Source: an uncultured Anaerolineales bacterium
GTDB lineage: Bacteria > Chloroflexota > Anaerolineae > B4-G1 > SLSP01
Length of the DNA stretch: 64,000 nt
Assembly: GCA_964437445.1 (NCBI GenBank)
Contig: CAYTGR010000014.1
Location: 3,812-67,811, forward strand
Reading direction: 5' to 3'
The notes under the pieces: generated by a model
The model's input: the letters and a program-made list of their open reading frames with translations, nothing else
Database searches by the model: none
Told to the model about the DNA's origin: nothing
Made by a program: the position numbers and the translations under genes
Shown here: piece by piece, positions 36,407-61,630 of the stretch
Position numbering within the stretch: the first letter of the stretch is position 1
How the letters are laid out: each line of letters opens with the position of its first letter

Positions 36407-38488
36407 CTACTCCGACAATAAATTTTCCACATAGGTCAACAGGTGGCTGCGATCCAGGGTCGTCTTGTCCCAGACCGATTCCACCTGTGTCCCGAGCTGC
36501 CCCCGCGCCTCCGGGGTGAGTTCCTTGCTCGTGATGACGATCACCGGAATGTTCCGGCTCTGCTCACGAGTTCGCAGGGCCGCCAACAGTTGCTCGCCGC
36601 TCATATCCGGCAACAACAAATCCAGCAGGATCAAATCGGGCAGCGTCTGCTCAACCAGTTCCAACGCCTCTTTGCCGGAGTAGGCCTCCAACACCTCAAA
36701 CCGCTGGCGGGACTCCAGCAACCGTCGCATGAGCCGCGACTCCCATACATTATCCTCAACTACCAGAATATGCAAACGGCGGGTCCGGCCAAAAGCAGCC
36801 ACCGGTCGCTCCTCGGCCGGATGAGGTGAGGTCAGGTGTTGGAAGGCAGCGTCGTCGTCGCCCAGCAATTCGGAAACATGCCGGACCAGTTCACGCCCGC
36901 TAAAGCTGCCCTTCTGCCAGACCGAATCGCTATAATCCCTCAAATAATCGGCCTCCTCCGACGTCAAGGTCTTGGCCGAAATGACAATCACGGGAATATC
37001 CCGGGTGCGCTCATCGGCCTTGAGCGCTGAAAGGACCGCCATCCCGTCCATGTCCGGCAGGGTGAGGTCCAGCAGGACCAGGCCGGGCCGGCGCTGGCGC
37101 ACGAGGTCAATTCCATCCACCCCCGTATAGGCTTCCAAGACGCGGTAGTTTTTGTAGCTTTGCAAGAGCCGGCGGATCAGCCGATTGTCGTGAGGATTGT
37201 CGTCAATCACCACTAACGTGGTAATCTGTTCATCCAGCTGCTCCAGGGCCGCCGCCAACCCCTCTACCGGGCGGCGACCGGCCGGGGCCTGGGGCGCTTC
37301 CAGGCTAACAAAGTAGCGATCCTCCAGAGCATGTTTTTCGGCGCTGAAGGTATGGCCGGAGCAGTTAATCACGACCCGTTCCCCAGGCCGAATGTGGCCC
37401 AGCGCCAGCAGCTTGTCCAGGCCGGCAAAGGCCACGCTGGCCGCCGGTTCCATGGAGAACCCCTCCAGGCGCGCAATCCGGCGCATCGTGCGAAAAGCGT
37501 CGCCATCACTGACCGCCACCATCGCCCCACCGTACTGATCCACCATCCGCTTCAGCAGCGAATACGAGAAACCGGGGTTACCGGTCGCCAACACGGTGAT
37601 GAGGCTATCGGGTTGCACCGGCGTCGCTTTATCCAGCCCCTGTTCCCAGGCGCGGACCATTGGCGCACAACCTTCGGTTTGCACGATCCCCAGGTGGGGA
37701 ACGCGGTCGGTCAAGCCGGCGGCGTGCAGCTCTATGAAGCCCTTGAGCACCCCCAGCGGGCCAATCCCGCCGGAGACAGCCTGAATGTACCAGTCGGGGG
37801 CCTGCCAGCCCAGCTGCTCGGCAATCTCAAAAGCGATCGTCTTCATACTTTCCTTGCACGGGATCGCCTTCGCCCCACCATCCATCAGGAGATGATGACG
37901 GGCGGCAAAATCGGCCGCGATTTCTTTAGCCTGATCGTAGGTGCCGGTAATTTTGACGACCTCGGCCCCGTAGAGCGCCAGTTCACGCATTTTCTCCACC
38001 GGCACGCTGCTGGTGAGAAAAACCCACAGTTTGATGCCCGCGCGGGCACAGTAAGCGGCGTAAGCCGCCGCCGCATTGCCGGTCGAGGCCAGCACTAATT
38101 CCTTGATCCCCTGAGTGCGCAGGGCGGTGACGGCGACCGAGGCTTGCCGGTCCTTGAAAGAGCCGGTCGGCTGCTGGCGTTCGTCCTTGATCCAGAGTTC
38201 CCCGTGGCCGCTTTCGCGCTCCAATCCTTCCGCGCGGGTCAACGGCGTCCACCCCTCCCCCAGCGAGAGCACGGAAATGTCATCGGGAAAGGGCAGCAGC
38301 TCGGTGTAACGCCAGAGCGTCGTGGCCCGCTGCTTGACCAGGGCCGGCCAGTCGGCCGGCAAGGCCGCGCAGTCATAGACGGCATCCAGCCAGGGGCTGC
38401 CACAACCAGCGCACTTGGTGATGAAGGGACTGGCAGCCATCAGCTGGCCACATTCCAGGCACCGCACCGCGGTTAAAAGCGTACTCAT
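36407..38488 (-). CDS. Threonine-synthase-like PLP enzyme fused to two C-terminal REC receiver domains
   Basis: An N-terminal zinc ribbon (CLECG…CAGCG) precedes the PLP-lysine motif TGSFKDRQASV, a Gly-rich loop (SGGIGPLG) and a tryptophan-synthase-beta-like fold of ~400 aa. Two complete REC domains follow (VVIDDNPHDNRL…LLDLTLPDMDG…VISAK and LVVEDNVWESRL…LLDLLLPDMSG…VITSK). Confidence 0.75.
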   Translation of the reverse strand: MSTLLTAVRCLECGQLMAASPFITKCAGCGSPWLDAVYDCAALPADWPALVKQRATTLWRYTELLPFPDDISVLSLGEGWTPLTRAEGLERESGHGELWIKDERQQPTGSFKDRQASVAVTALRTQGIKELVLASTGNAAAAYAAYCARAGIKLWVFLTSSVPVEKMRELALYGAEVVKITGTYDQAKEIAADFAARHHLLMDGGAKAIPCKESMKTIAFEIAEQLGWQAPDWYIQAVSGGIGPLGVLKGFIELHAAGLTDRVPHLGIVQTEGCAPMVRAWEQGLDKATPVQPDSLITVLATGNPGFSYSLLKRMVDQYGGAMVAVSDGDAFRTMRRIARLEGFSMEPAASVAFAGLDKLLALGHIRPGERVVINCSGHTFSAEKHALEDRYFVSLEAPQAPAGRRPVEGLAAALEQLDEQITTLVVIDDNPHDNRLIRRLLQSYKNYRVLEAYTGVDGIDLVRQRRPGLVLLDLTLPDMDGMAVLSALKADERTRDIPVIVISAKTLTSEEADYLRDYSDSVWQKGSFSGRELVRHVSELLGDDDAAFQHLTSPHPAEERPVAAFGRTRRLHILVVEDNVWESRLMRRLLESRQRFEVLEAYSGKEALELVEQTLPDLILLDLLLPDMSGEQLLAALRTREQSRNIPVIVITSKELTPEARGQLGTQVESVWDKTTLDRSHLLTYVENLLSE

Positions 38489-38775: not shown

Positions 38776-39852
38776 CTATTCCGCGTAACCCGGCTTGAGG
38801 CCCAACACCTCATAGGCCCGGATCGGCGTCGTGATCCCTTTGCCGTACAAGGGTAACACTTCCCTGGCCTCGGCAACCGCTGTAACCGCTTCATAAGTCG
38901 GGCTATCCACCAGGATCTGACCGGCTTCGGCGTTTTCCTGCAACCGCTTGGCCAGATTGGGAATATGGCCGATCACGGTATAATCCATAAACTGATCCGA
39001 CCCAATGTTGCCCACCACGGCTTCGCCAGTGCCGATCCCCACCCCCAACCCCAGCTCTCGCATCAGCGGCCGCTCCCGGCAGAGTTGGGCAAAGCGCTGT
39101 TGCATGACGCAGGCCGTAATCACTGCCTGTTGGGCACCATTGACCAGGATCAGCGGGGCCCCGTAGACCGCCATGATGGCATCCCCCAGATATTTATCCA
39201 ACATGCCGTGATGCTCAAAGACCACCGGCGTCAACCGGTTGAAAACGTAATTGAGCATTTCAATGACCTCACCCGCCTCACGGGTCTCCGAAAAGTGGGT
39301 AAAGCCCCGAATATCGGCAAAGAGCACACTGACCGTGCAGCTCCGTCCCCCCAGTTGCAGGTTCTGTTCGGGATTGCTGAGGATCTCCAGGGCGACGTCG
39401 CGGGAGACGTACCGCGTCAGCACCCGCTCCAGCAGCGCGTTTTTGACCTGCAGTTCGTCGGTCAGCTGCTTGATCCGCAACAACGAACGGACCCGGGCCA
39501 ACAGCTCCACGGCGTTGAACGGCTTAACCAAAAAGTCGTCAGCTCCGGCCTCCAGGCCCCGGACCTTGTCCTCCATTTCCCGGAGCGCGGTCAACATCAG
39601 GACGGGGATGGCCCGGCTCTCCGGTGCACTCCGCAGAGCGCGGGCCACCTCATAACCATCCAATCCCGGCATCATCACATCCAGCACCACCAGGTCAGGT
39701 AGATTCTGGTGGACCATCTCCAACGCCTGCAGCCCATCGGACGCCGTGAGCACGACATAGCCCTGCCGGGAAAGCAACGATTCCAGCAACCGGATGTTGC
39801 GTTCGTTATCGTCCACTACCAGGACCTGGGCATGTCCATCTGGGTTGGGCAT
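38776..39852 (-). CDS. Response regulator with class III adenylate/guanylate cyclase output domain
   Basis: A REC domain (VLVVDDNERNIRLL…VLDVMMPGLDG) precedes a CYCc domain (VLFADIRGFT…KYLGDAIMAVYGAP…GIGTGEAVVGNIGS). Confidence 0.85.
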   Translation of the reverse strand: MPNPDGHAQVLVVDDNERNIRLLESLLSRQGYVVLTASDGLQALEMVHQNLPDLVVLDVMMPGLDGYEVARALRSAPESRAIPVLMLTALREMEDKVRGLEAGADDFLVKPFNAVELLARVRSLLRIKQLTDELQVKNALLERVLTRYVSRDVALEILSNPEQNLQLGGRSCTVSVLFADIRGFTHFSETREAGEVIEMLNYVFNRLTPVVFEHHGMLDKYLGDAIMAVYGAPLILVNGAQQAVITACVMQQRFAQLCRERPLMRELGLGVGIGTGEAVVGNIGSDQFMDYTVIGHIPNLAKRLQENAEAGQILVDSPTYEAVTAVAEAREVLPLYGKGITTPIRAYEVLGLKPGYAE

Positions 39853-39879: not shown

Positions 39880-42800
39880 TTATCCGGCACCGCCCTCAGG
39901 ATCTGCCGGGGCAGTTTGGATGGGCAAACGGACCGTAAAGACGCTCCCCTTACCCAACTCACTGCTCACTTCAATAGTGCCGCCGTGCATCTCCACCAGA
40001 TAGCGGGTGATCGCCAGCCCCAGTCCTGTCCCCTCGGCGCGCCGCTTGCTGGAACCATCTACCTGCCGGAACTTCTCAAAGATTTGCTCCAGCTGATTAG
40101 CCGGGATGCCAATGCCGCTATCGGCGACTTCAATGCAGACCCACGGATCGCTGCGGTAGGCGCGGACCTGGACGTAGCCATGTTCGGTGAACTTCATGGC
40201 GTTGCTGATCAGGTTGTTGAGCACCTGGTTGAGCCGGATGCGGTCGGCGTGGAGCAGCGGCAGGTCTGGTTCCGATGCAATCCGCAACTCCACCGCCTCG
40301 GTCCGCTGGTACTTGCGGAGCAACCCGGTGCCGCTGGATTTCACCTCATCCAGCAGCTGGTCTACTTCTACCTCTTCCATCTTGAGCACCATGCGGCCGG
40401 CCTCAATCTTGGCCAGATCCAACACATCGTTGATCATGCTGAGCAGGTGCTGCCCGTTTTCATGGATAGCCTTGACATCTTCCAGCGTATCCCCTTCCAG
40501 CTCACCATCAATGCCCATGAGCAGCACTTCGGCGTAACCGATGATAGAGTTGAGCGGCGTCCGCAGCTCATGGCTCATGTTGGCCAGGAACTCGCTCTTT
40601 AGCCGGTCCAACTCGCGGAACCGCTCGGCCACGTGCTGAAGTTCCTCTACGTAGCCGGCATTCTGGAAGGCGGTCGCGATCTGACCGGCCAGGGTGCGGA
40701 AGACGTCCAGCTCAGCTGGGCCGAAGCGAGCCGGTTCGTCGTCCTGCACATCAAAGACGCCCAACACCCGGTCGCCGTACACAGCCGGCACCGCCACCTC
40801 CGACCGGGTAAGTGGAAGCAACGGGTTCGGCAGGTGATCGGGAGACTTGGTGACATCGTCCACCACGACAACTTCCTTGGTGCGGGCCGCCCGGGCCACC
40901 AGACTCCGTTCCGTGTTGAGCGGGATGCGGTGCCCCCGGGCTACCATGACGCGGCCAGGCTCGCCGTATCCGGCTTGCAGCACTAACTCCTGGGTCTCCT
41001 CGTCTACCACGTATACCTGGACGTGGTAGATGTCAAACCGCTCTTTGATCAAGGAGACTACCCGGCTGAACAGGGCCTGCGGATCCAGGATAGAAGCGAC
41101 CTGAGTGGAGATATCCGCCGCCGTGCGCAACTGAGCCGTCAGCCGGGCGCGCTCCTCCTCGGCCCGTTTGCGGGCGGTGATGTCGCGGATGATAGAGACA
41201 AAGCCGCTGGGCGCGCCTGTGGCATCACGCAGCAGCGCCGCGTTCATTTCCGCCTCAAACTCACTCCCGTCGCGGCGCACCATCCGGTACTCGGCCGTCT
41301 GGCTGGTGCCGGTCTCCAGAGCCCGCCGGACACTCTCGGCAGCTTTGGACCAGAAGGGGCGGGTAAAGAGCTGCATGGAGCTGCGACCCAACAGGTCGTC
41401 GCGGCCACTGTAGCCATAGAGCCGCAGCGTCGCTTCGTTCAAGTCCTCAATCTTGCCCATCATGTTGGTGACGGTGATCCCTTCGGTCATCGCGTCAAAC
41501 ATGGCCCGGATCTTCTCCGCCGCCTCACGTTGAGCCGCTTCCGCCTGGCGCTGCTGCTCAAAGAGCCGGGCACTCTGGAAGGCGTTGGCGATCTGACCGG
41601 CCAGAGTCCGGTAGACATCCAGGTCCGATTCGGTGAAGTAGTCCGCCTGATCGGATTGGACGTCAAAGACGCCCAAGAGCCGATCACCGATCATGGCCGG
41701 CACTGCCACCTCAGCCCGTGTATCGGGCAGCAGCAGGTTCGGCATGAAGTCCGGGTCCTGCGTCACATCGTTGGCCAGCGCGATCTGCCGGGTGCGAGCC
41801 GCCCGGGCTACCAGGCTTTGTTCCTGATCCAGGGTGATCTTGAAGCCCTGCTGCCGCATGATCCGTCCTACCTGGCCGTAGCCGGCTCGCAGCACCAACT
41901 CTTGGCGGGCCTCGTCCATGACATAGAAGTGGACATGGTAGAGATTAAACCGTTCTTTCAGCAGCGGGATCACCTCGTCAAGCAGCTCGTCGGTATCCAG
42001 AATGGCACCGACCTGCGCGGAGATCTCGGCCGCGGTGCTCAGCTGGGTGACAAACCGTTCCCGCTGCGCCTCTGCCCGTTTGCGTTCGGTGAGGTCAATC
42101 CCGGCACCAACCAGGTAGACCTGGTCGCCCACCGCCAGCCGTGTCCCGGTCACGAGATAGGGAACCGGGCGACCCGTCTTGCTCAGAAGATGCGCTTCCG
42201 CCTCTGCATAACCGGTGGTAAACACCTCATTCATACGGGCGACGATCAGGGCGCGATCCAGCTCGGCAATGGTGTCCAGGACCTTCACCTGGGGCATCTC
42301 GGCCGGGGTGTATCCCAACACCTCTTCATAGCGGCGGTTCCAGCGCACCAGGGAGCCGGCCTGATCATAAAGGTAGAAGATGACCGGCAAACTGTTGATC
42401 AGAGCGTTAGAGAAGTCGCGTTCGCCCGCCACCGCCGCTTCCGCCTGCTTGCGCTCCGTGATATCGCGCACGTTAGCGAGTACCATGTCGCGCCCGCCCA
42501 ACGTGACCCGGCGCAAGAAAACCTCAGCGTCAAAGGTCGTACCATCATGAGGGCGCTTGGCTTTCCATTCAAAGAGCTGCGGCTGGCCAGCCATCACCCG
42601 CTGCCAGAGAACACCCAGCTGGTCCAATGGATTGTCCGGGCTGGAGTAATCATCGGCGATGGAGAGCCGAGTGGCCTCCTCCCGGCTAACGCCGTACATC
42701 TCCAGGATTTTGTCGTTCACGTCCACGATGGCCCCCTCCGCTGTGTGCAGGAAAATGCCATCGTAAACGCTGTTAAAGACTGTGCGTAAGAGCAGTTCCG

Positions 42801-45800
42801 ACCGCTGAATTCTCTCTTCCGCCTGCTTGCGCTCGGTGATGTCGCGGACCAGAGCGAGGGCCTGATCGGTGCCGACGCGGCTCATACGGGCCTCGTAACT
42901 GTGCATGGTCTCGCCGAGGGGAGCCTCGTATTCATAAGTGACCGGTTCGCCGGTCGCCAGTACCTGCTTCAGGTACTTCAACGTTGGCTCCGCAATCTGC
43001 GGCGGCAGGACCGTCCCCAGGGGCTTGCCCAGGAAGAGCTCGGGCGGCACCAGCAGTTCCTGCCCGGCCTCGGCCTTGAAGTCCTGGAAGATGCCCGCGG
43101 CATCAAAGACGAACATCATATCAGGAACCGTCTGCAACAACGCCCGGTTACGGGCGGCACTCGCCTCGGTAGCAACGTAGAGACTGGCATTCTGGAAGGC
43201 GGTGGCGATCTGCCCGGCCAGCGCCCGGAAGACGTCCAGGTCCGCCTCGGTGAAGTAACCCGGCACATCGTGCTGCACGTCAAACACCCCGATCACCTGC
43301 CCACCCGCGATGGCCGGCACCGCCACCTCCGACCGCGTCTCCGGCAACAACGGGTTCGGCAGGAAGTCCGGCGCGGCCGTCACGTCCTCCACCACCACGA
43401 CCTCCTGCGTCCGTGCGGCGCGCGCCACCAGGCTCTTCTCCGCCTCCAGCGGGATGCTGTGCCCCCGCTCCAGCATGATCCGTCCGGGTTCCCCGTACCC
43501 GGCCCGCAACTTCAGCGCCTCGCCCTCCAGCGTGTAGACGTGCACGTAGTACAACCCAAACCGCTCTTTGATCAGCGGGATCACCGCCTGCAACAACTCG
43601 TCCGGGTCCAGGATGGACTGCACCCGTGCTGCAATCTCCGCCGCTACACTCAACCGTTGCGCAAACCGCTCCCGCTCCGCTTCCGCTTGCTTGCGCTCGG
43701 TAATGTCAAAGAAAGCGGAAAGCAGCACTGGTTCCCCCTCCAGTTCAAACGGATCAATGGAGAGGTCGCTCCAGAACATCCGGCCATCATCCAACCGCTT
43801 GAGCCGTAGCTCGTAGTGACTCAGCCGCCCCTCGGTCTGGACTGTACTCACTACCTGTTGCCGCTCCGCCGGATCATAGTAGAGATCCACCGTCGTCTGG
43901 CCGAGCATGTCGGCCGCAGACTTACCGAACATCACACTGAATTGTTCGTTGGCGTAGAGGATCGTCCCATCAGCCACGCGGCTCACCACCAGACTTACCG
44001 GCACGGTCCCCAACACCTGCCGCTGCCGTGCCTCCGCCTCCCGGAGCGCCTGCTCGGCCCGCTTGCGCTCCGTGACGTCTTCAAAGGTGCCATCCAGATA
44101 CTCGGGTTGGCCCGCAGCATCGTAAACCAGGCGGCCACTGAGCGCAATGGTGATCACGCTACCATCGGCACGGCGGAACAGTACTTCAAAGTCGGTGACC
44201 GGACCCTGGGCCAGCGTCTCCAACAGCCGCTGGCGTTCCTGGGGATCAACATAGAGGTTGGACAACCCAACCTTATTGATCGCCGCCACCGAATCAAAGC
44301 CGAGAATGCGTAACATGGCCGGGTTGGCGGCCACTACCTGCCCGGCCGGGGTCGTGCGGAAGATGCCGACCAGCGCGCTATTCACCAACTCCTGGAATCT
44401 ACTCGCCGCCTCCGCCGCCCGCTCCCGCAATTGCGCCGCTTGCAGCGCGACCGCCCCCTCTTCTACCAACGCCCGATACAACGCCAGTTTGGCCTCATCA
44501 AAATACCCCGGAATGGCCGCGGCCAGAGAGAGCACTCCCAACCATTCCTCGCCCGCGGTAATCGGCAACAGCGCCAGGCTGGCCGAGCCCTGCTGCACCA
44601 GCAACTGCCGCGTCGCCTCATCCAAATGCGGATCGGTGGTCGCATCGGCAATCACAAAAGACCGATCCCGCCCGACCGCTCTGAGCAACGGCAGTTGTTT
44701 GGCCGTGAAGCGCGTACCCAAGGGAATGACCGCCGAAAGGCCGCTCTCCGCCCCTGCTGCCCGCACCAACACCGTGGTCAGCTCTTCCGCCGTAGCGTCT
44801 ATCAGGTGCAGCGTCACCCGTGCCGCCGGGAAAATGGTGGCCTGTTCCGCCAGCGTATCCAACACGGCCGCCTCGGTCTGGGCTCCCGCCAGGGCCTGGC
44901 TGATGCGCAGCCGCAACTGCGCTTCGGTGTACAACTGCGCGTTCTGGAAAGCGGTGGCGATCTGCCCGGCCAGCGCCCGGAAGACGTCCAGGTCCGCCTC
45001 GGTGAAGTAACCCGGCACATCGTGCTGCACGTCAAACACCCCGATCACCTGCCCACCCGCGATGGCCGGCACCGCCACCTCCGACCGCGTCTCCGGCAAC
45101 AACGGGTTCGGCAGGAAGTCCGGCGCGGCCGTCACGTCCTCCACCACCACGACCTCCTGCGTCCGTGCGGCGCGCGCCACCAGGCTCTTCTCCGCCTCCA
45201 GCGGGATGCTGTGCCCCCGCTCCAGCATGATCCGTCCGGGTTCCCCGTACCCGGCCCGCAACTTCAGCGCCTCGCCCTCCAGCGTGTAGACGTGCACGTA
45301 GTACAACCCAAACCGCTCTTTGATCAGCGGGATCACCGCCTGCAACAACTCGTCCGGGTCCAGGATGGACTGCACCCGCGCTGCGATCTCCGCCGCTACA
45401 CTTAATCGCTGCGTGTACCGTTCACGCTCCTCATCCGCCTGCTTGCGTTGGATGACCTGCCACAGCCCGGTCGCCAGCAACGTCAATTGCTGCACATCGC
45501 TGTCCGTATAGTCTTCTGGCTTGTTGCCTACCCCCACCACCATGACGATGTGTTCCCCGTCAAAGATCGGGGCATTCATGTGCCGCTTGACTTCTACGTG
45601 CCCCTGAGGATAGCCGCGCTTCCAGGGGTTGGGCTCGTCGTAATCGTTAGTGATAATGGCTCGCCGCTGGCGTATCGCCTCTCCCCACAGCCCGGTCGTG
45701 ACTACTGGATATACAATCGGCTTATCAATGATCTTGCACTGCGCCATGGCTCCACCCGACCAGGCATGCATGGTCATCACCGATTCATCGGCATTAACAA

Positions 45801-48366
45801 ATGCCAGGTAACTAATAGGGCTGTCGGTAATGTGCCCAAACTCTTCAATGGCGTAATCCAGGATCTCCTTGAGCGGCGCCTCCGCCATCTGGCTCAACCG
45901 CAACAGTGCTCGCTGGCGGATGTCATCCAACTGCATCGCTTTCTCCGCCTGCTTGCGCTCGGTGATATCCAGGAAGGCCCCCTGCGTGGCCGGCCGCCCC
46001 TCGTAGCTGATGATGGAGCTGTACATCATCACATCCATGGCGGTCCCGTCCTTGCGCAGCAAACGGGACTCGTAAGTATCTGGCACCGCTTCACCGGCAA
46101 CACGCTGGCGAGCAATGGTCCCCACTCGCTCTCGCTCATCGGGATGGATCAAGTCCAAAATAGAGCGGCCAGCCACTTCCGCCGGATCACTGTACCCCAA
46201 CAGGCGCGCGGCCTCATGGCCCAGGTATTTGATAATCCCATCTTGATGGACGAAAATCCCCACCGCAATGTTGTCCGCTAAAACCCGGAACTTTTCCTCC
46301 GATTCCCGCAACGCCTGCTCGGCCGCTTTCCGTTCGGTAACATCGCGGCTGTTCACCACAATGCCGGCAATGCCCGCTACGGTAGAAGCCTGTGCCGAGC
46401 CTTCCATGGTGCGCCAGGAGCCGTCTTTATGGCGGAAGATGTACTCGGCGTGAACTACTGCTCCCGGCTGCTGGCCTATCCCGGCCAGCAAAGCAGCGAT
46501 CCCCGGCACGGTTTCCGGCGGGATGAATTCCACGACTGAACGGCCAATCAGTTCCTCCGGTTCATAGCCCAGGATGCGTTTGAGGGAGGGGCTTTGGTAA
46601 GCAATCAGGCCTTCAGGGCTGACAATGGTGATCAGATCGGAGGAGTTCTCAATCAGCGCCCGGAACCGCTGTTCATTCTCGTGCAGGGCGGCCTCCGCCT
46701 GGACCCGGTCGGTGATATCGGTGATCAGGCCCTCCAAAGCAACAACGTTGCCTTCTTCATCCTCAATGCCACGTCCCTGCTCCCACACCCAACGGATGGT
46801 GCCATCGCGGTGCACAATACGGTAGGTAGCCTGGTAAGGTTGGTGGGCCTGAAGCGCGGCCTGAACCGTTTCCCAAACAGCGTTCTGATCTTCGGGATAG
46901 ATGAGATCCCCAAAGGAGATTTCTCCGCCCAGCATCAACGCTTCAGGGGCGTAACCAGTGAGCGCCAGGCTGCCCTCACTGACAAACTCTGCCGGCCAGT
47001 CCGGCCGGTTCAACATCCGATAAACCATGCCGACCAGGTTCCCCATCAGGGTCGTCAGACGGCGCTGGCTTTCACGCACAGTGGCCTCCGCCTGCCGCTG
47101 CGCCTCAAACAGTTGCGCGTTTTCCAAGGCCACCGCAATCTGCCCGGCCAGCGTTCGGAAGACATCCAGGTCCGCCTCGGTGAAGTAACCAGGAGTATCA
47201 TGCTGGACGTCAAAAACGCCCAATACTTTGCCTCCCGCGATGGCCGGCACGGCCACTTCCGATTTCGTTTGGGGGAGCAAGGGGTTGGGCAGGAAATCCG
47301 GCTCAGCCGTCACATCGTTTACCAGTACCGGGACCTGAGTCCGGGCAGCGCGGGCTACCAGGCTCTGCTCGGCCAACAACGGGATGCGGTGTCCCTGCGC
47401 CACCATGATCCGCCCCGGTTCACCGTAGCCGGCCCGTAGCTCCAGCGTTTCGCCTTCCAGCGTGTAAACATGCACGTAGTAGAGCCCGAACCGCTCCTTG
47501 ATCAACGGGATCACCGCCTGCAACAACTCATCCGGATCCAGGATGGACTGCACCCGCGCCGCGATCTCTGCCGCCACACTTAACTGCCGGGTATACCGCT
47601 CCCGTTCGGCTTCTGCTCGTTTGCGCTCGGTAATATCTTTGACGGTCCCCAAACTGGCAACCTGTCCGCCCAGCTGCACCAGGCCGACGGTCATATTGAC
47701 ATCCACGCGGGTGACCCCATCCTTGCGCAGCATCCGCCACTCGTAAGCGGGCGGCACCGGTTCACCGGCCTGCCGGCGCCGATAGCTCTCCGCCACTTTC
47801 GGCAGATCCTCCGGCGCAATCAACCGGGTGAATTCCATCCCGATGATTTCCTCCACGGTGTACCCGACAATGTCAGCAAAGGCCTGGTTGGCAAAGATCA
47901 TCTTCGCGTTTTGGATGATAAAAACGCCATCCTGGATATTTTCTGCCAACACGCGGTATTGAGATTCTGACTGGGCGAGGGCTATTTCGGCCTGTTTGTG
48001 TTCGGTGATATCCATCAAGGTAGTCAAATAAGCCGCTTCGCCCTGATAAGTGACCGCCTGTACAACCAGCGATAACCAGACCGGACTGCCATCGCTCAAC
48101 CGCCGGCCCCGCATTTCATAATCCTGCACCAGGCCGCGTTCCTGCAAAGTCGCCAACAACGCTGTGCGCTCGGCCGGATCGTAATAGAAATCTGGCGTGA
48201 CATGGCCGACCAGCTCGGCCGGCGGTTTGCCGGCCAGCGCCCCAAAGCGCTCATTGGCGTACAAAACCTGACCGTCCTCGCGGCGGCTGATCAGCGCCGC
48301 GACCGGTAAGGCCTCCAGCAGCCAATACTGCTGTTCAATCTCCTTGTTGACCTCAACAGCGTTCAT
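39880..48366 (-). CDS. Giant (2828-aa) multi-PAS/multi-GAF sensor histidine kinase
   Basis: About 9 PAS/PAC and about 6-7 GAF domains (GAF openers such as ERERYTRQLSVAAEIAARVQSILDPDELL recur five times) are followed by HisKA (NMSHELRTPLNSIIGY) and HATPase_c (DSGIGIP…GTGLGLAI). There is no REC domain. Long near-identical internal DNA repeats are present. Confidence 0.85.
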   Translation of the reverse strand: MNAVEVNKEIEQQYWLLEALPVAALISRREDGQVLYANERFGALAGKPPAELVGHVTPDFYYDPAERTALLATLQERGLVQDYEMRGRRLSDGSPVWLSLVVQAVTYQGEAAYLTTLMDITEHKQAEIALAQSESQYRVLAENIQDGVFIIQNAKMIFANQAFADIVGYTVEEIIGMEFTRLIAPEDLPKVAESYRRRQAGEPVPPAYEWRMLRKDGVTRVDVNMTVGLVQLGGQVASLGTVKDITERKRAEAERERYTRQLSVAAEIAARVQSILDPDELLQAVIPLIKERFGLYYVHVYTLEGETLELRAGYGEPGRIMVAQGHRIPLLAEQSLVARAARTQVPVLVNDVTAEPDFLPNPLLPQTKSEVAVPAIAGGKVLGVFDVQHDTPGYFTEADLDVFRTLAGQIAVALENAQLFEAQRQAEATVRESQRRLTTLMGNLVGMVYRMLNRPDWPAEFVSEGSLALTGYAPEALMLGGEISFGDLIYPEDQNAVWETVQAALQAHQPYQATYRIVHRDGTIRWVWEQGRGIEDEEGNVVALEGLITDITDRVQAEAALHENEQRFRALIENSSDLITIVSPEGLIAYQSPSLKRILGYEPEELIGRSVVEFIPPETVPGIAALLAGIGQQPGAVVHAEYIFRHKDGSWRTMEGSAQASTVAGIAGIVVNSRDVTERKAAEQALRESEEKFRVLADNIAVGIFVHQDGIIKYLGHEAARLLGYSDPAEVAGRSILDLIHPDERERVGTIARQRVAGEAVPDTYESRLLRKDGTAMDVMMYSSIISYEGRPATQGAFLDITERKQAEKAMQLDDIRQRALLRLSQMAEAPLKEILDYAIEEFGHITDSPISYLAFVNADESVMTMHAWSGGAMAQCKIIDKPIVYPVVTTGLWGEAIRQRRAIITNDYDEPNPWKRGYPQGHVEVKRHMNAPIFDGEHIVMVVGVGNKPEDYTDSDVQQLTLLATGLWQVIQRKQADEERERYTQRLSVAAEIAARVQSILDPDELLQAVIPLIKERFGLYYVHVYTLEGEALKLRAGYGEPGRIMLERGHSIPLEAEKSLVARAARTQEVVVVEDVTAAPDFLPNPLLPETRSEVAVPAIAGGQVIGVFDVQHDVPGYFTEADLDVFRALAGQIATAFQNAQLYTEAQLRLRISQALAGAQTEAAVLDTLAEQATIFPAARVTLHLIDATAEELTTVLVRAAGAESGLSAVIPLGTRFTAKQLPLLRAVGRDRSFVIADATTDPHLDEATRQLLVQQGSASLALLPITAGEEWLGVLSLAAAIPGYFDEAKLALYRALVEEGAVALQAAQLRERAAEAASRFQELVNSALVGIFRTTPAGQVVAANPAMLRILGFDSVAAINKVGLSNLYVDPQERQRLLETLAQGPVTDFEVLFRRADGSVITIALSGRLVYDAAGQPEYLDGTFEDVTERKRAEQALREAEARQRQVLGTVPVSLVVSRVADGTILYANEQFSVMFGKSAADMLGQTTVDLYYDPAERQQVVSTVQTEGRLSHYELRLKRLDDGRMFWSDLSIDPFELEGEPVLLSAFFDITERKQAEAERERFAQRLSVAAEIAARVQSILDPDELLQAVIPLIKERFGLYYVHVYTLEGEALKLRAGYGEPGRIMLERGHSIPLEAEKSLVARAARTQEVVVVEDVTAAPDFLPNPLLPETRSEVAVPAIAGGQVIGVFDVQHDVPGYFTEADLDVFRALAGQIATAFQNASLYVATEASAARNRALLQTVPDMMFVFDAAGIFQDFKAEAGQELLVPPELFLGKPLGTVLPPQIAEPTLKYLKQVLATGEPVTYEYEAPLGETMHSYEARMSRVGTDQALALVRDITERKQAEERIQRSELLLRTVFNSVYDGIFLHTAEGAIVDVNDKILEMYGVSREEATRLSIADDYSSPDNPLDQLGVLWQRVMAGQPQLFEWKAKRPHDGTTFDAEVFLRRVTLGGRDMVLANVRDITERKQAEAAVAGERDFSNALINSLPVIFYLYDQAGSLVRWNRRYEEVLGYTPAEMPQVKVLDTIAELDRALIVARMNEVFTTGYAEAEAHLLSKTGRPVPYLVTGTRLAVGDQVYLVGAGIDLTERKRAEAQRERFVTQLSTAAEISAQVGAILDTDELLDEVIPLLKERFNLYHVHFYVMDEARQELVLRAGYGQVGRIMRQQGFKITLDQEQSLVARAARTRQIALANDVTQDPDFMPNLLLPDTRAEVAVPAMIGDRLLGVFDVQSDQADYFTESDLDVYRTLAGQIANAFQSARLFEQQRQAEAAQREAAEKIRAMFDAMTEGITVTNMMGKIEDLNEATLRLYGYSGRDDLLGRSSMQLFTRPFWSKAAESVRRALETGTSQTAEYRMVRRDGSEFEAEMNAALLRDATGAPSGFVSIIRDITARKRAEEERARLTAQLRTAADISTQVASILDPQALFSRVVSLIKERFDIYHVQVYVVDEETQELVLQAGYGEPGRVMVARGHRIPLNTERSLVARAARTKEVVVVDDVTKSPDHLPNPLLPLTRSEVAVPAVYGDRVLGVFDVQDDEPARFGPAELDVFRTLAGQIATAFQNAGYVEELQHVAERFRELDRLKSEFLANMSHELRTPLNSIIGYAEVLLMGIDGELEGDTLEDVKAIHENGQHLLSMINDVLDLAKIEAGRMVLKMEEVEVDQLLDEVKSSGTGLLRKYQRTEAVELRIASEPDLPLLHADRIRLNQVLNNLISNAMKFTEHGYVQVRAYRSDPWVCIEVADSGIGIPANQLEQIFEKFRQVDGSSKRRAEGTGLGLAITRYLVEMHGGTIEVSSELGKGSVFTVRLPIQTAPADPEGGAG
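43181..43650. repeat. Intragenic direct repeat copy A (~470 bp, near-identical to 44933-45402)
   Basis: Identical antisense ORF translations at 43310-43537 and 45062-45289. Direct comparison shows only a handful of mismatches near the ends. Confidence 0.85.
44933..45402. repeat. Intragenic direct repeat copy B (1752-bp offset from copy A)
   Basis: As above; it encodes a duplicated GAF-PAS module of the kinase. Confidence 0.85.
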
Positions 48367-48492: not shown

Positions 48493-49602
48493 TTAACGGT
48501 CCTGGACCAGGCGGTTGACCAGGGCCAACAACGCCTCCATAGTCACCGGCTTTTCCAGGTAAAAATCAACGTCCAGCTCATTACAGAGCTCCCGATATTG
48601 AGCGTGGCCGGAGATGACGATCACCTGCACTTCGTTCTGTCGGAAGGTCATGAGCTGCTCCTGCAACAAATCGGTGCCCCGCTCATTGCCGAGGTGAATG
48701 TCGCACACAAAAACATCAAAGCGATGCTGAGCCAACAAACTGCGCGCGGCCTGCAGCGTAGTCGCCAGGCTAACCTGATATCCGGCTTTGGAAAAAGCCT
48801 TCCCGTAAAGCCGCTGGAGCGATTCGTCGTCTTCCAATACCAGAACCCGCCAGTGTTTCAAGTTTGCCAGGGCCTGGCAAAGGGTTGCAGCGGACTCGGG
48901 CCGATGGACGAGATCGCTCAACGTCAGGCTACCCAAGGCGCGCAGCTGGCCCAAGAGCTCCGGGGATTCAGGAGGATTCAACAAGACGATGCGCGTTGGC
49001 GGGCTGAGCTGGTGCGCCCGCCGGATGAAATCCAGCCCATTGAGGGACCCGATGTGCATCCCGGTGACAATCCAGTCAAACTGCTCCCGCCTGAGGCTAT
49101 TCAACGCTTCATCCAACAACATCGTGATTTTAACGTAATGTTCTTTGCTTAGCGCCTGGTAGAGCGTGATAGCCTCTTGGGGATCATCTTCTATGATCAA
49201 GACCTGTTGCCGTTTAACCTGGGTTGAAACCGGCGGTAATAACGCCTCCAAAGCTGCCTCGCGGATTTCCGCAATATCCAGGGGCTTCTGTAAGCAGCGT
49301 TGCACCGCCAGGCGCTGGGCGTCGGCGTCACGCCGGCCATAGGCGGTCATCCAGATCACTCTGGTCTCCGGTGCCACTCCCCGGATGGCTTCCGTCAAGG
49401 CCACCCCATCCATCCCTGGCATCCGCAAATCGGTAATGATCAGATCAAACGGAGCCGCACGGAACTTCTCCAGCGCTTCCTGGCCGTCCCGTGCGGTGAC
49501 AACCTCGTAATCGGCACCCAGCTTCATCAAGCTCCCGTTAACGACAAAAAGCACTCTTTCGTCATCATCAACAGCCAAAATTCGTTTTGGGGCGCTCATC
49601 AA
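48493..49602 (-). CDS. Triple-REC protein (three tandem receiver domains, the middle one degenerate)
   Basis: REC1 is ILAVDDDERV…ITDLRMPGMDG…MTAY. REC2 is LIIEDD… and lacks the canonical DxxD…D. REC3 is VLVLEDDESL…VCDIHLGNERG…ISGH. Confidence 0.75.
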   Translation of the reverse strand: MMSAPKRILAVDDDERVLFVVNGSLMKLGADYEVVTARDGQEALEKFRAAPFDLIITDLRMPGMDGVALTEAIRGVAPETRVIWMTAYGRRDADAQRLAVQRCLQKPLDIAEIREAALEALLPPVSTQVKRQQVLIIEDDPQEAITLYQALSKEHYVKITMLLDEALNSLRREQFDWIVTGMHIGSLNGLDFIRRAHQLSPPTRIVLLNPPESPELLGQLRALGSLTLSDLVHRPESAATLCQALANLKHWRVLVLEDDESLQRLYGKAFSKAGYQVSLATTLQAARSLLAQHRFDVFVCDIHLGNERGTDLLQEQLMTFRQNEVQVIVISGHAQYRELCNELDVDFYLEKPVTMEALLALVNRLVQDR

Positions 49603-49749: not shown

Positions 49750-50496
49750 TCAGGTTTGTCCGACCCCCTTAGCAACCGGCGAGGCCGGTGCGCCAGCCGC
49801 CCGGAACATGTAGCCGACTCCCCGTACATTGAGCAGGAATTGGGGATTGGCCGGATCAGGTTCCACTTTGCGCCGCAAACCGTAGACATACCACTTGACG
49901 ATGTCCCGCGCCTCCTGCTCGTGCAAGTCGGTGTACCCCTGCACCGCTTGCGCCAGTTCCGCGGGTGCCAGCACCTTCTCATTATGTTGCAGCAGATAGA
50001 CCAGCAGCCGAAACTCGGCCGGGGTCAGCTCCAATAACCGCCCGGCCAACCGCACCTCGTGCTTCTCCAGGTCGGCCTGGAAAAGGCCCTCCTGGAGCAG
50101 CGGCATTTCGCGGGCGGCGGTGCCGGCCAGCCGCCGGCGCCGGCCCTGAGCCTCACGCACGGCCTGACTGAGCTGTTCACGGCTCACCGGCTTTTTCAGG
50201 TAGCCGTCCACCCCTTCCTGGATAGCCGCCATGGCCGATTCCAGCGAAGCGTAGGCGGTGAGGATGATCACCACGGTCTCCGGCCAGCGCCAGCGGACCT
50301 TCTGCAGCAAGTCCTGACCATCCACCCGCCCCCCCAACCGCAAATCCACCACCAGCACGTCAAAGAAAGTGTCCCGTAGCAGTTCCAGCGCCTCTTCACC
50401 GCTGGCGGCAGTCACTGTCTGGTAGCCCTCTGTCTCCAGAATTTGGGCCAGCGTCAGCCGGATGTTTTTCTCATCGTCCACCACCAGGGCTCGCAT
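49750..50496 (-). CDS. OmpR/PhoB-family response regulator (REC + winged-helix Trans_reg_C)
   Basis: ORF trimmed to MRALVVDDEKNIR. VVDLRLGG…LTAY precedes a C-terminal wHTH (LTPAEFRLLVYLLQH…VYGLRRKVE…VRGVGY). Confidence 0.85.
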   Translation of the reverse strand: MRALVVDDEKNIRLTLAQILETEGYQTVTAASGEEALELLRDTFFDVLVVDLRLGGRVDGQDLLQKVRWRWPETVVIILTAYASLESAMAAIQEGVDGYLKKPVSREQLSQAVREAQGRRRRLAGTAAREMPLLQEGLFQADLEKHEVRLAGRLLELTPAEFRLLVYLLQHNEKVLAPAELAQAVQGYTDLHEQEARDIVKWYVYGLRRKVEPDPANPQFLLNVRGVGYMFRAAGAPASPVAKGVGQT

Positions 50497-50550
50497 AGCA
50501 TCAGCCACCTACGTTCCTCCTTGCTTGTTAAGTTTGTTAAGGTAGTAACG

Positions 50551-50590
50551 GGTGAGCAGTGAATAGTGAGCAGTGAGTGGTGAGTAGTTT
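50551..50590. repeat. GTGAGCAGTGAATAGTGAGC-family repeat, copy 2, with an inverted partial copy at 50688-50709
   Basis: Read from the sequence. Confidence 0.7.
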
Positions 50591-50803
50591 GGAGGTGGCG
50601 AACTCTGTACTGCTCATAGTTCTCCTCATAAAATATAGAAACCAGTTAAGGGGTGAGCAGAAAGCAACCGGTAGAAATTCCTGTTTCCTGCTCACCGCTC
50701 ACGGCTCACATTTTCATCCCACGGCTGGTAAACGCCCGTTCATGGGGAATTCCCCTGAAAGCCAGATTTAACACAAAAACGCGGAGGCCGCAGAGTCCTC
50801 TTC

Positions 50804-50838
50804 TTCGCCATTCGCCATTCGCCATTCGCTATTCGCTA
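50804..50838. repeat. Heptamer tandem repeat (TTCGCCA x3, TTCGCTA x2) immediately 3' of the MEDS-HK stop
   Basis: Read from the sequence. Confidence 0.8.
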
Positions 50839-50839
50839 T

Positions 50840-53800
50840 TCACCCAGGCCGGACCGGCAGCCAGACGATAAAGGTGCTCCCCTGCCCCGGCTGGCTCTCC
50901 ACTTCAATGCGCCCGCCATGCTGTTCCACAATCCCGGCGCTGATCGCTAACCCCAACCCGGTTCCCCCGGCTTTGGTGCTGTAAAAAGGTTCAAAGATGT
51001 GGGGCATCACCTCAGGCGCGATCCCGGTCCCCGTATCGCTAAACTGGACGGCGACACGCGGTGGGGCGGGGAGCAGCTGTGTCTTGATCTCCAACTGGCC
51101 GCCCTCAGGCATGGCAGCGACGGCGTTCAGCAGCAGATTCCAAAACACCTGCTTGACTCGCTCCGGCACAACCAACAGGGTGGGCAGGTCAGGGGCCGGC
51201 GACCAGACCAGCACGACACGATTATCACGGCAAAGTTTGTGGCTTAATTCCAACACCTCTTCCACCAGTTGGTTGATGTCGGCCGGCTCTTTTTCTTCGG
51301 ATTCCGGGCGGTAGAGATCGCCCATCCGGGCCACAATGCGGGCGATACGCCGCACTTCTTCAGCGGCGATCTGCAGGTAGGGACCGGCCGGCTGACCTTC
51401 CAACAACGCCTCCTGGGCCAACCCCAGACCGCCCAGGATAGATTGTAGCGGGTTGTTGATCTCATGAGCCACTGAAGCAGCCAGCCGGCCGGCCAGCGCC
51501 AGCCGCTCCACCCGGATCAGATCCTGCTCCAGCTGCTTACGCTGGGTGATATCCCGCGCAATCCCGCTGATGGCTGTCACCGCGCCCAGCTCGTCTTTGA
51601 TCGGGGAGAAGGAGACAGAGAGATAAAGCCGCTCTTCCGGCAACTCCAAGGCCCATTCAAACGTACAAGGGGCCCCCGTCTCAATCACCTGGCGGCTCTT
51701 GAGCCGATAGACCGCCAGAGAGTCAGGCGGCAATGCTTCCACCACCGGCCGCCCCAACATGTTGGTCGCGGACCAGCCGTAACGCTCCGGCACGTGCAAG
51801 AAGGTAAATCGCTCTTCCGGCAAACCGATCATGAAAATAAGATCGTCCGCCGAGGCAATGAGCGCACTCAACCGCTGTTCAGAGGCACGCAACGCCTCTT
51901 CCATCCACCGGCGCTCAGTGATGTCTTGCGCCGCGCCTAAGATCCGTACCACCTGCCGGCCGCTGGCATCCCAAACCGGGCGTTCGTGCTGGCGCAGCCA
52001 GCGAAGCTCGCCCTGCCTGGTGATGATCCGGAACTGGCTGACCTGTTGCTGACCGGCCAACAACAGCTGGAGATTCAGATGTAGGATAGGCAGGTCGTCA
52101 GGGGCCACCAGGGCCGCCAGCCCCCCCGCCGCTTCCAGTTCGTCCGGCGTGTAACCGGTGATCCGGGTAAAAGCATCCGTCACCCATTCAAAGTGCAGAT
52201 GGCCTTCAGCATCTACCGTCAGGGCATAAGCATAATCCGAAGTCAACTCTGAGACCGCCTGATATTGCTGCCGGGAGTAGCGCAGGGCCTGTTCCATCCG
52301 CCGCTGTTCGGTGACATCCATCCCAATGCCGATCAGGTACTCCGGCACTCCCTGGGCATCCCGCAACACCGTATCAGACCAGGCAATGAGACGGCGACTA
52401 CCGTCGCGCAGCAGACAATCGTTCTCATGGTATTGCGGGGCCGCCCCGGCCAGCAGATCGGCAAACCGCTCTTTGACCAGTTCTTGCTGTTCCGGCGGGA
52501 CCAGTACCTCCCAGAAACAACGCCCTTGCAATTCGGCGGTTGTCCAGCCGGTCATCTGCTCGTTGGTCCGGTTCAGACGCACCACCCGGCCCTGCCGATC
52601 TATCACGTCCAGCAAAACGCCAGCGCTGTCCAGCACGGCCGCGGTAAAGTCACGTTCCTGTCGCAGGGTTTCTTCCATTTGCCGGCGGTCGGTAATATCT
52701 TCCCCGATGCTGGCAACAGCGGTGATCCGCCCCTGCGGATCGCGTAACACGGCATTGTTCCAGGCAGTCAGCCGGCGTTCTCCGGCCCGGGTTACAATGG
52801 CATTCTCATAATAGGGCGGGATGATCCCCTCTGCCAGGCCTTGGCGGAACATTGCTCTCACCGTTTCACGTTGGTCGGCGGGCACAAAATAATCAAACCA
52901 GTTACACCCGCTGACTTCCTCCCATTGCCAGCCGGTCAGCTCCAGCACGAACTGATTGCAAAAAGTAAGCCCCCCTTCCTCGTCCAGGATCACCGCCGCC
53001 ATCCGCACGTTATCTAACAGCTTGCGGAAACGCTGCTCCGAGGCCCGGCGCGCTTCCTCGGCCCGCTTGCGTTCGGTGATGTCGGTCAACACCGAGAGGA
53101 GTCCCACCACCCGATCGCCCTCTAACAAAGGCTGGGCACTGACCAAAACAGAGATTTTGTCACCCCCTGTCGTCACCAGTTCCACCTCATCCTGGCTGGC
53201 AACGCCAGGCCGGTGAGGGAGAACTTCCGCCGCCCCCGGAGCGCGGGATTCCGGCGCTAAGAGCTGGCCCCAGGAACGCCCCCTGAGCGCCTCCGGCGTT
53301 GTGCCGAGCATGGCCGCGGCACTGGCATTAGCAAAGGTAATGTGCCCCCCGGCATCCTCCAGGATGATCCCCTCCTGCATCCCCTGGACAATGGTCTCAT
53401 TGAAGGCACGCAGCCGTTCGGTCTCCTGGTAGAGACGCGCGTTTTCCACCGCGGACGCGGCCGCGGCGGCCAGCGGCTCAATCGCCTCCAGGTCCTCCCC
53501 ACTGAAGCGAGCCAGTTCAGTATCCAACGCCTCCAGCACTCCGATGACGCGCCCGTGAACCCGCAACGGTACGCTCAGAATGGAGCGCATGATTAATCCC
53601 ACCTGCCGGTCGACACCCATAAAGTGGCGGCCATCCTGCACAGCGTCGGAAACGATCAGCCCCTCATTGTGCTGAAGTGTCCACCCCACCAGTCCCTGAC
53701 CAGGCTTCAGCCGCCAGCCGATCACCTGTTCATAACCGTAGCCGGTCGCCTGGCGACAAACCGCCTCGCCAGTCTGCGGATCAACCAGCCAGACCGAGCA

Positions 53801-61100: not shown

Positions 61101-61630
61101 GGTATGAAATGGCGCTTGAGATAGGCCAGGCGCAGGGACCGGGTCTGCCAACGGCCCCCGGTAAGCTCAGCCGTCTGGATGTTCAAATCACTCCCCTCAC
61201 CGGGCCAGACCGCGGCTATCTGGTGCAAATCCAGGACGTCACCGAGCAACGCGCCGTTGAGGAGCAGGTCTGGTTCCAGGCGCACCTGCTGGATAAGGTA
61301 CAGGAGGCCATTATCGCTACCGACCTGCAGGGCCGGATCATCTACTGGAATCGTGCCACAGAAACACTGTACGGCTGGTCGGCGGCCGAGCTGTTGCACC
61401 GGGACGTGGCCGAGTTGATCGTGCCGCACCACGAGACGGCGAGGCTGCGCGCCGTGTTGAAACAGCTGGCCCAGGGCGGCACCTGGTCAGGAGAAATCCA
61501 CATCCGGCGCAAGGAGGGCAGCCCGGTGTTAGTGTTACTCACGGCCGGCCCGCTGGACAACGAAGCCGGGCAGCAGATCGGTATCATCAGCCTCGCCACC
61601 GACATCAGTAAGTACCCCAGGGAGGAGTAG
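58160..61630 (+). CDS. Response regulator with REC domain followed by an array of ~8 PAS/PAC domains, no recognisable output domain
   Basis: REC is LLLIEDDLADARL…LLDLTLPDSDG…LTGV…YLSKT. It is followed by repeated PAS/PAC signatures (DIT[AE]R[KR]Q[AM]E). The ORF ends without a kinase, GGDEF or HTH domain. Confidence 0.8.
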   Translation: MRDLAITLLLIEDDLADARLIRTLLAEVNAAEPALLHTKLHEASTLAAGLERLAAGDIQLTLLDLTLPDSDGSAAFTQVLQSYPNVPLIVLTGVTDDALAVSAVRAGAQDYLSKTGLSGPLLARAIRYAVERQHILTELLQSEQRFRALVENVSDIILVLNPDRTIRYASPAVERLTGHPPATWEGQDLLRILAPEEQEPLALLFNHLLQHPGLTLPVSARLAHGSTWRTVEGVAHNLLADPAVDGIILSLHDVTRRVQAEVALAHSRDFYLTLFNHLPTLIWRSGPDAKCTYVNQTALAFTGRSSEAVRGDGWLSDLHPQDQQRCLETYLEAFLARQPYTIEYRLRRHDGQYRHVLEVGQPYADMDGLFAGYLRSAYDITERYQAEELQAFLAAIVTSSDNAIIGKTLAGEIRSWNAGAERIYGYSAAEAIGRPVTMLLAPDRPAEVQQILARIRQGERVEHYETVRRRKDGTAVIVSLTTSPIYNAAGEIVGASTIAHDITARRQMEQALHESEARFRSIVEQLHDGIVITNPEGRILEWNPGEERLTGIPRAEAIGRYIWELQWQLATEERRAILTYESYVAKVKEFYTQEQVTWPTQPQEAVIRHRDGSQRIIQTLIFPLLTAQGLGVGSVSHDITAQKKAEQALRESEELYRKLVSTSPDGIVLTDLEGAILYLSPRTLALFNATQAEGALGHNVLEWISPEDRPRAAADLQAVSQTPRVGQTYTLVRRDGSRFYGEITAAAVLDATGRPYRIISTVRDVTERVHREAALRASEAQLRSMIDQSHDSIILCDEQGLIVEWNRAQEQLSGLPRARALGRYAWDVMFEMASSEMRTPEAYTRLKADFMATLATGRPPWSEPLHEQLIQRPDGSRRSAELRVFPIRTDSGFMICSISRDITERKRAEEAWRESEARFRSLFEHSPLALGQYDAEGRLLAMNPAGLRLFGATDLAAAQATLPLAALNVPPAALQQGQPVRYEMALEIGQAQGPGLPTAPGKLSRLDVQITPLTGPDRGYLVQIQDVTEQRAVEEQVWFQAHLLDKVQEAIIATDLQGRIIYWNRATETLYGWSAAELLHRDVAELIVPHHETARLRAVLKQLAQGGTWSGEIHIRRKEGSPVLVLLTAGPLDNEAGQQIGIISLATDISKYPREE

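Follow-up and report, generated by a model that had tools for sequence, protein, structure and literature searches.

How do two domains of one protein, set among different neighbours and 1752 bp apart, come to share more than 400 consecutive identical bases? The question is raised by a 64,000-nucleotide stretch (the window) of contig CAYTGR010000014.1, assembly GCA_964437445.1, from an uncultured Anaerolineales bacterium, which carries at 39880..48366 on the minus strand the gene of a 2828-residue soluble multi-sensor histidine kinase. The two domains, GAFa2 and GAFa3, belong to a set of five related GAF domains of this kinase, numbered GAFa1 to GAFa5. We consider it likely that their identity arose by intragenic gene conversion, in a cytoplasmic kinase with 18 inputs that signals to a receiver-cyclase protein (REC-cyclase), and that crossovers have reshuffled its modules. 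The same protein is found in an NCBI record (P0121, from an 86.7-kb contig), and an exact search for it on contigs gave no match; the allele of the window is called W below.

Extent of the repeat

The initial annotation described two GAF-PAS modules as identical at the DNA level over about 470 bp. When 43181-43650 and 44933-45402 are aligned at their offset of 1752 bp, 461 of the 470 bases are the same (98.1%); the near-identity thus stands, and the perfect run within it is restricted to 428 bp, from 43199 to 43626 in GAFa3 and from 44951 to 45378 in GAFa2 (100% identity). When the aligned GAFa2 and GAFa3 columns were permuted 10,000 times, a run of this length never arose, and the pair is the sole megablast-level repeat of the window, which contains no Ns. 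Both domains lie on the minus strand and score 2e-19 against Pfam GAF_2: GAFa2, the putative donor, at 44917..45432 (residues 979-1150), and GAFa3, the putative recipient, at 43162..43686 (residues 1561-1735), in which the minimal converted tract would span 43267-43554.

The perfect tract covers the GAF core only, that is residues 997-1139 for GAFa2 and 1581-1723 for GAFa3. Outside about 43183-43695, identity at the 1752-bp offset drops to the random level of 16-38%. A comparison of the kinase gene with itself had been proposed with the initial annotation; a self-BLAST brought up only the five GAFa segments, each about 500 bp long, and no similarity between PAS domains. The two copies also sit in different contexts, with GAFb and GAFc on either side of GAFa2 and PAS7 and PAS8 on either side of GAFa3, and the domains that follow them (GAFc-PAS6-PAS7 and PAS8-PAS9-PAS10, respectively) are unrelated, with 26-33% identity in alignments of more than 50 residues. 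As the identity stops at the GAF core, between unrelated flanks, the repeat is neither a GAF-PAS module, as had been proposed, nor a tandem duplication. What is found instead is a tract of identity longer than divergence predicts and with abrupt edges, as in gene conversion.

Comparison of near-identical strains

A metagenome contig of the Joint Genome Institute (L001, sample 3300022666, hereafter J) spans positions 29880-56901 of the window and provides a second view of the same strain. W and J align without a gap over 27,022 bp with only 22 mismatches, and the kinase gene measures 8487 bp in both. Seventeen of the 22 mismatches fall inside 288 bp of GAFa3 (43267-43554; binomial tail 7e-30), and at all 17 sites GAFa3 of W has the base of GAFa2 while GAFa3 of J carries another one; GAFa2 itself is 100% identical between the two. 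Two near-identical strains therefore differ within the repeat, and one copy is in the state of the other. The simplest reading of these alignments is that 288-428 bp of GAFa2 overwrote GAFa3 in the lineage of the window. Of the codons hit by these differences, 12 of 16 are changed synonymously, which argues that GAFa3 of J is a genuine functional paralogue under purifying selection rather than error or noise.

A third strain (contig L033, hereafter K) is about 97.4% identical to the window and shares its order of domains from PAS1 up to PAS7, at which the contig ends. GAFa2 of K differs from GAFa2 of the window in one cluster, in which six consecutive variable sites carry the bases of the J-type GAFa3; on these alignments the patch points to an exchange in the opposite direction, of GAFa3-type sequence into GAFa2. 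A protein search with PAS7-GAFa3-PAS8 yielded no further GAFa3 allele of the same species, all matches being at most 70% identical.

Comparison with syntenic orthologues

Two other lineages, O and M, hold the kinase at the same locus: in all three the gene is followed by genes for the REC-cyclase (class III), a pyridoxal phosphate (PLP) enzyme fused to two receivers, two single receivers and a GNAT protein. Lineage O is represented by L036/P0126 and by an incomplete copy, L002/P0009, lineage M by the L032/P0004 cluster; L032 and L033 were among the matches listed in a scan of metagenome contigs with a GAFa3-PAS8 alignment.

We compared GAFa2 and the J-type GAFa3 of the window lineage with the corresponding copies, a2' and a3', of O (L036) site by site. 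Copies of the same genome are joined at 35 sites, orthologous positions at nine, and a third grouping appears at two. Eight of the nine orthology sites are in the C-terminal linker and one is near the N-terminal edge, so that grouping by genome prevails within the GAF core, at 35 sites against 0-1, and grouping by position in the linkers. Two paralogues of one genome are hence closer to each other than to their orthologues, and their flanks keep the orthology. Judged from these site patterns, the GAFa2 and GAFa3 positions are orthologous between the lineages and their GAF cores have been homogenised in each, the pattern of concerted evolution by intragenic gene conversion. The perfect runs agree with this picture in kind: a2' and a3' of O share 150 bp in the full-length copies, the 125-bp run on the O contig L002 was matched in length by none of 10,000 shuffles, and a GAFa pair of M shares 74 bp, a length that a fraction of 0.0003 of shuffles reached.

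The behaviour of the other copies is varied. GAFa4 is an ordinary orthologue, 93% identical in DNA to that of O. GAFa5, the last GAF ahead of the transmitter, shares only about 65% of its DNA sequence (62% in protein) with its counterparts in O and M, which are 94% identical to each other, and its surroundings are much nearer to O and M (PAS11 82%, kinase core 73%); it seems that GAFa5 has been replaced, or has diverged fast, in one lineage. GAFb is absent from the orthologues of O and M. The contig L002 (Ga0116238_10020073, a short-read assembly) begins inside a GAFa copy, and over its first 197 bp, which include the 125-bp perfect run, it matches the following GAFa copy at 95% identity; this suggests that it broke at the repeat.

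At this conserved locus the number of modules varies between lineages. The kinase of the window has 2828 residues and the full order of 11 PAS and seven GAF domains; that of O has 2012 residues, in the order PAS3'-PASx-GAFa2'-GAFx-PASy-PASz-GAFa3'-PAS8'-PAS10'-GAFa4'-PAS11'-GAFa5'-HK, and that of M 1699 residues, in the order PAS3'-PASx-[GAFa-PAS8']-PASw-[GAFa-PAS8'']-GAFa4'-PAS11'-GAFa5'-HK, where HK stands for the histidine kinase core. O lacks PAS9, and M contains a true duplication of the GAFa-PAS8 module, 887 bp long at 90% identity. The breakpoints between lineages fall at GAFa copies. This is where crossovers between GAFa repeats would delete or duplicate the modules in between, and the same repeats appear to underlie the differences in module number. 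The comparison of orthologues thus bears out the variation in module number that the initial annotation foresaw, as a difference between lineages; it is not found among the near-identical strains, J having the same gene length and K the same order over the part that its contig covers, where strain-to-strain variation had been expected.

Proposed mechanism and alternatives

We propose the following scheme. The 18 PAS and GAF input domains, with helical linkers between them, would feed one HisKA/HATPase_c transmitter. The DNA of the five GAFa paralogues would be similar enough for recombination between them, and non-reciprocal homologous recombination would repeatedly write part of one GAFa core over another. 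In the strain of the window, 288-428 bp of GAFa2 would have taken the place of the matching part of GAFa3, producing the 428-bp perfect repeat, and conversion would have left untouched the position-specific linkers and the neighbouring PAS and GAF domains. In the longer term, crossovers between the GAFa repeats may delete, duplicate and reshuffle modules, yielding proteins of 2828, 2012 and 1699 residues.

The most serious alternative is an artefact of assembly: the true GAFa3 would be of the J type, about 94% identical to GAFa2, and an assembler or polisher would have merged the two paralogous paths, passed through the repeat twice and written GAFa2 into both places while keeping the copy number right. 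Several observations weigh against conversion as the origin of the W allele and most of them favour such an artefact: (i) the fully converted GAFa3 is present in a single record, P0121; (ii) the contig evidently derives from a metagenome, its relatives being metagenome-assembled genomes (MAGs), and short-read contigs do break at GAFa repeats, L002 being an example; (iii) in the J allele, GAFa2 and GAFa3 share identical runs of 68 and 72 bp on the two sides of a stretch in which no identical run is longer than 59 bp, so that at k of about 60-68 the copies would form one poppable bubble, which a de Bruijn assembler could merge to give the same pattern; (iv) W and J might be alternative consensus paths of one mixed population and not two clones; and (v), on the side of function, the relatives of GAFa in the PDB are weak and generic. 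On the other hand, the switch to the GAFa2 state is clean at all 17 sites with GAFa2 untouched, where a smaller k would give independent bubbles and a mosaic would be expected, and the contig continues for at least 64 kb through the repeat without Ns. Exchange between the two positions is moreover seen in K, a third assembly, and concerted evolution in O and M, which are assemblies of other samples by other groups; K, too, comes from another sample and another assembler. Since exchange recurs in K, O and M, the conversion process is demonstrably active at this locus, and an artefactual origin of the perfect identity leaves the concerted evolution of the GAFa cores unaffected. We regard the artefact as unlikely, with a chance that should nevertheless be kept in mind.

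A second alternative, which we find rather improbable, takes the identity of GAFa2 and GAFa3 as the older state and supposes that the J-type cluster in GAFa3 was brought in by homologous recombination from a diverged strain. It draws on the second tight cluster of differences between W and J (55070-55187), a segment without a paralogue in the window, and on the patchy distribution of the differences between W and K, which is typical of inter-strain recombination. However, this import merely switches the derived allele: identity at synonymous sites between copies with unrelated flanks still requires conversion between GAFa2 and GAFa3 at some point in the past. In addition, the J-type GAFa3 bases recur in GAFa2 of K, indicating that the variants circulate between both paralogous positions.

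There is scarcely any room for the view that a 1752-bp GAF-PAS module was duplicated in tandem so recently that the copies have had no time to diverge. The direct repeat with its fixed offset and the real GAF-PAS duplications in relatives (that of M described above, and module-level ones in P0036, P0054 and P0117) speak for it, but everything at the 1752-bp offset should then match, and the flank comparison given above rules this out. The domains following the two copies are unrelated, the same-strain contig J has a diverged GAFa3, and the linkers show that the two positions are orthologous to those of O, which makes the duplication older than the split of the lineages. Of the two origins that had been offered side by side for the repeat, gene conversion therefore fits the GAF-limited identity and the patterns in J, K and O, and recent tandem duplication does not.

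A collapse or expansion of copy number was likewise rejected, W and J being free of gaps over their 27,022 bp and K having the same order from PAS1 to PAS7. The expectation that assembly might have collapsed repeats of this kind is unsupported in its first part, since two independent assemblies give a gene of the same 8487 bp; its more general part holds, in that such repeats break short-read contigs such as L002.

Architecture of the kinase

The open reading frame at 39880..48366 (minus strand) is intact from its ATG start, and the 8487-bp gene encodes 2828 residues that had correctly been taken for a sensor kinase. Pfam searches with the complete protein and, domain by domain, with 19 segments obtained by dividing it at its recurrent D[IV]TERK linkers gave the order PAS1-PAS2-GAFa1-PAS3-PAS4-PAS5-GAFb-GAFa2-GAFc-PAS6-PAS7-GAFa3-PAS8-PAS9-PAS10-GAFa4-PAS11-GAFa5-HisKA-HATPase_c, that is 11 PAS and seven GAF domains (five GAFa, GAFb and GAFc), every segment scoring above its gathering threshold. 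The transmitter core lies at 39883..40641 (minus strand). Its HisKA domain (residues 2590-2657) scores 78 bits against a cut-off of 26.9 and has the H-box histidine, His2599, in an HELRTP motif; HATPase_c scores 111 bits and has N, G1 and G2 boxes reading NLISNAMKF, DSGIG and GTGLGL. By its motifs the kinase looks catalytically competent. No transmembrane helix is predicted, the highest Kyte-Doolittle value of any 19-residue window being 1.35. Since no segment is hydrophobic enough for a membrane anchor and the catalytic motifs are present, the protein appears to be a soluble and competent enzyme. It has what defines a HisKA-type two-component sensor histidine kinase, namely HisKA with its histidine, the boxes of HATPase_c and a putative receiver partner nearby, and, with its PAS and GAF domains above the Pfam thresholds and no membrane anchor, what defines a soluble multi-PAS/GAF sensor.

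At least five GAF domains with nearly the same opening peptide had been noted, and these are the five GAFa, all of which begin with ER[EA]R[YFL]; they are 58-98% identical to one another in amino acids and 64-95% in DNA. GAFa1 (47077..47616, minus strand, residues 251-430) is the third-closest copy, 77-78% identical in DNA to GAFa2 and GAFa3 overall and 89-96% in its first third. GAFa4 (41542..42075, minus strand, residues 2098-2275) is about 67-68% identical in DNA to the same pair, and GAFa5 (40642..41163, minus strand, residues 2402-2575) about 68%. The two other GAF domains are unrelated to this set: GAFb (45433..45948, minus strand, residues 807-978), of the GAF_2 type (Pfam GAF_2 8e-29), aligns with GAFa over only 22-77 residues at 27-32% identity, and GAFc (44437..44916, minus strand, residues 1151-1310), a divergent GAF between GAFa2 and PAS6 (Pfam GAF 3e-08), is about 31% identical to it. 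The 11 PAS domains are mutually 21-47% identical in all alignments of more than 50 residues. In the PDB, GAFa has only weak matches, which differ in function (a chemoreceptor GAF, free methionine-R-sulfoxide reductase and PDE10A, 2zmf, 6e-05), and GAFb has no sequence relative among these structures at E<=0.01, so that a ligand cannot be proposed for either.

Relationship to known systems

The nearest proteins in the databases, usually 2000-4000 residues long, are PAS/GAF kinases from MAGs of Anaerolineae and other Chloroflexota. The kinase resembles those annotated as 'PAS domain S-box' proteins in these groups (P0002, 3978 residues; P0010, 3147 residues; P0012, 1964 residues) in its combination of PAS, GAF, HisKA and HATPase_c, in having a GAFa-type domain two to 11 times per protein, and at the level of 40-60% identity in the best local alignments. 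It differs from other multi-PAS/GAF kinases in the succession of REC-cyclase, PALP-REC, REC, REC and GNAT genes, shared only with O and M, and in its order of 11 PAS and seven GAF domains, which is found only in the strain cluster of the window. With the whole kinase and very specific peptide patterns, a scan of genome contigs picked up PAS/GAF kinases that are all distant (Bacteroidota, Proteobacteria and others), and no close relative among them.

To place the repeat in this family, a GAFa hidden Markov model and pairwise alignment were applied to the 120 best homologues. Between two and 11 GAFa-like domains each were present in 117 of them, and the best GAFa pair was at least 90% identical in 14 of the 117 and at least 80% in 27. 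The identity is limited to the GAF, as in the window, in P0014, P0026, P0049, P0002 and P0016, and reaches into the adjoining PAS in P0004, P0036, P0054, P0117 and P0102. The repeat of the window is one case of a trait common in the PAS/GAF kinase family.

Concerted evolution by gene conversion is well known in bacteria, in rRNA operons, tufA/tufB and repeat-domain surface proteins. The present case has the same features: paralogues closer than orthologues, mosaic tracts with sharp edges and flanks that keep their own history. It is unlike these examples in that donor and recipient would be sensor domains of one reading frame, 1752 bp apart and with unrelated domains between them. A literature search found no published account of gene conversion in PAS/GAF kinases; its occurrence at the level of a sensor domain is unsurprising all the same. 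The serial arrangement of GAF domains upstream of an output domain recalls the tandem-GAF cyanobacteriochromes and the GAF-A/GAF-B pairs of phosphodiesterases and CyaB-type cyclases, from which the kinase differs in showing no evidence of binding bilin or cyclic nucleotides.

The type of kinase, the process of conversion and the assembly hazard are all already known, and the locus represents no new kind of system: it is a clear but ordinary case. Its value is that domain-level conversion inside a bacterial signalling gene would here be seen nearly in the act, in two assemblies that differ almost only in the converted tract; this offers a clue to how proteins as large as the multi-PAS/GAF kinases of Chloroflexota come about and change. 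It is tempting to speculate that GAFa is a built-in recombination cassette of these giant kinases, conversion keeping the copies similar and thereby driving the gain, loss and reshuffling of modules, near the strain level and across the phylum. We hold this idea tentatively and judge it possible but on balance doubtful; if true, sensor architecture would vary close to the level of strains, as a general mode of evolution of signalling proteins in Chloroflexota. There is also a practical side. Where a gene contains paralogous domains that are 94-100% identical, short-read contigs break, and the copies can be homogenised unnoticed during assembly; domain counts and sequences in MAGs must therefore be taken with caution.

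Neighbouring genes and predicted signalling

The kinase is followed after 27 nt by the REC-cyclase gene (38776..39852, minus strand), whose product joins a response-regulator receiver to a class III nucleotidyl cyclase (Pfam Response_reg and Guanylate_cyc) and has as PDB relatives the receiver of PleD and the adenylate cyclase CyaB (3r5g, 4e-31). The same gene follows the kinase on L002, L032 and L036, in O and M. Because of the 27-nt spacing and the conserved synteny, the REC-cyclase is most likely phosphorylated by the kinase as its phosphotransfer partner and output. The kinase would then integrate many signals of the cytoplasm, sensed by its PAS and GAF domains, and control the synthesis of a cyclic nucleotide; further targets may exist among the remaining receiver proteins of the cluster.

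Among these, a threonine-synthase-like PLP enzyme with two receivers is encoded at 36407..38488 (minus strand; Pfam PALP and two Response_reg; syntenic on L032 and L036), and it scores 277 bits against the NCBIfam threonine synthase model, under the cut-off of 303 bits. This fusion of 693-706 residues, an unusual one, occurs right after the REC-cyclase in the three lineages (L032, 10357-12477; L036, 13159-15279). Just upstream of the kinase lies the gene of a multi-receiver protein with three REC stretches by Pfam (48493..49602, minus strand), which the gene tables of L001 and L036 place only in the lineage of the window. NCBIfam gave no family above cut-off for any neighbour of the kinase, and Rfam had no match within the window.

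A kinase with MEDS, PAS and GAF domains (1502 residues, 50840-55348, minus strand) and two further PAS proteins make the window a dense signalling island. One of the latter, of 1156 residues at 58160-61630 (plus strand), combines a REC with seven PAS domains; another PAS protein, at about 62900-64000 (plus strand), continues past the end of the window. Between PAS segments of these two there is a weak repeat, 58880-59316 against 63083-63519, with 68% DNA similarity. The cluster is flanked by a protein with four PA14 domains (28693-30999, minus strand) and a Ser/Thr kinase with the Ig-like domain N_BRCA1_IG (31861-33864, plus strand).

The five mismatches between W and J that fall outside the kinase gene are confined to 118 bp (55070-55187) in the N-terminal MEDS region of the 1502-residue kinase, and three of the five are non-synonymous (V63A, V67A and R69H). 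As this segment has no paralogue in the window, the cluster resembles a polymorphism or a small patch left by recombination between strains. Finally, the comparison with K revealed a hypervariable, mostly intergenic segment at 50479-50978, between an OmpR-type regulator gene and the 3' end of the MEDS-kinase gene, with 109 differences or indels in 500 bp where most 250-bp bins elsewhere have 0-15.

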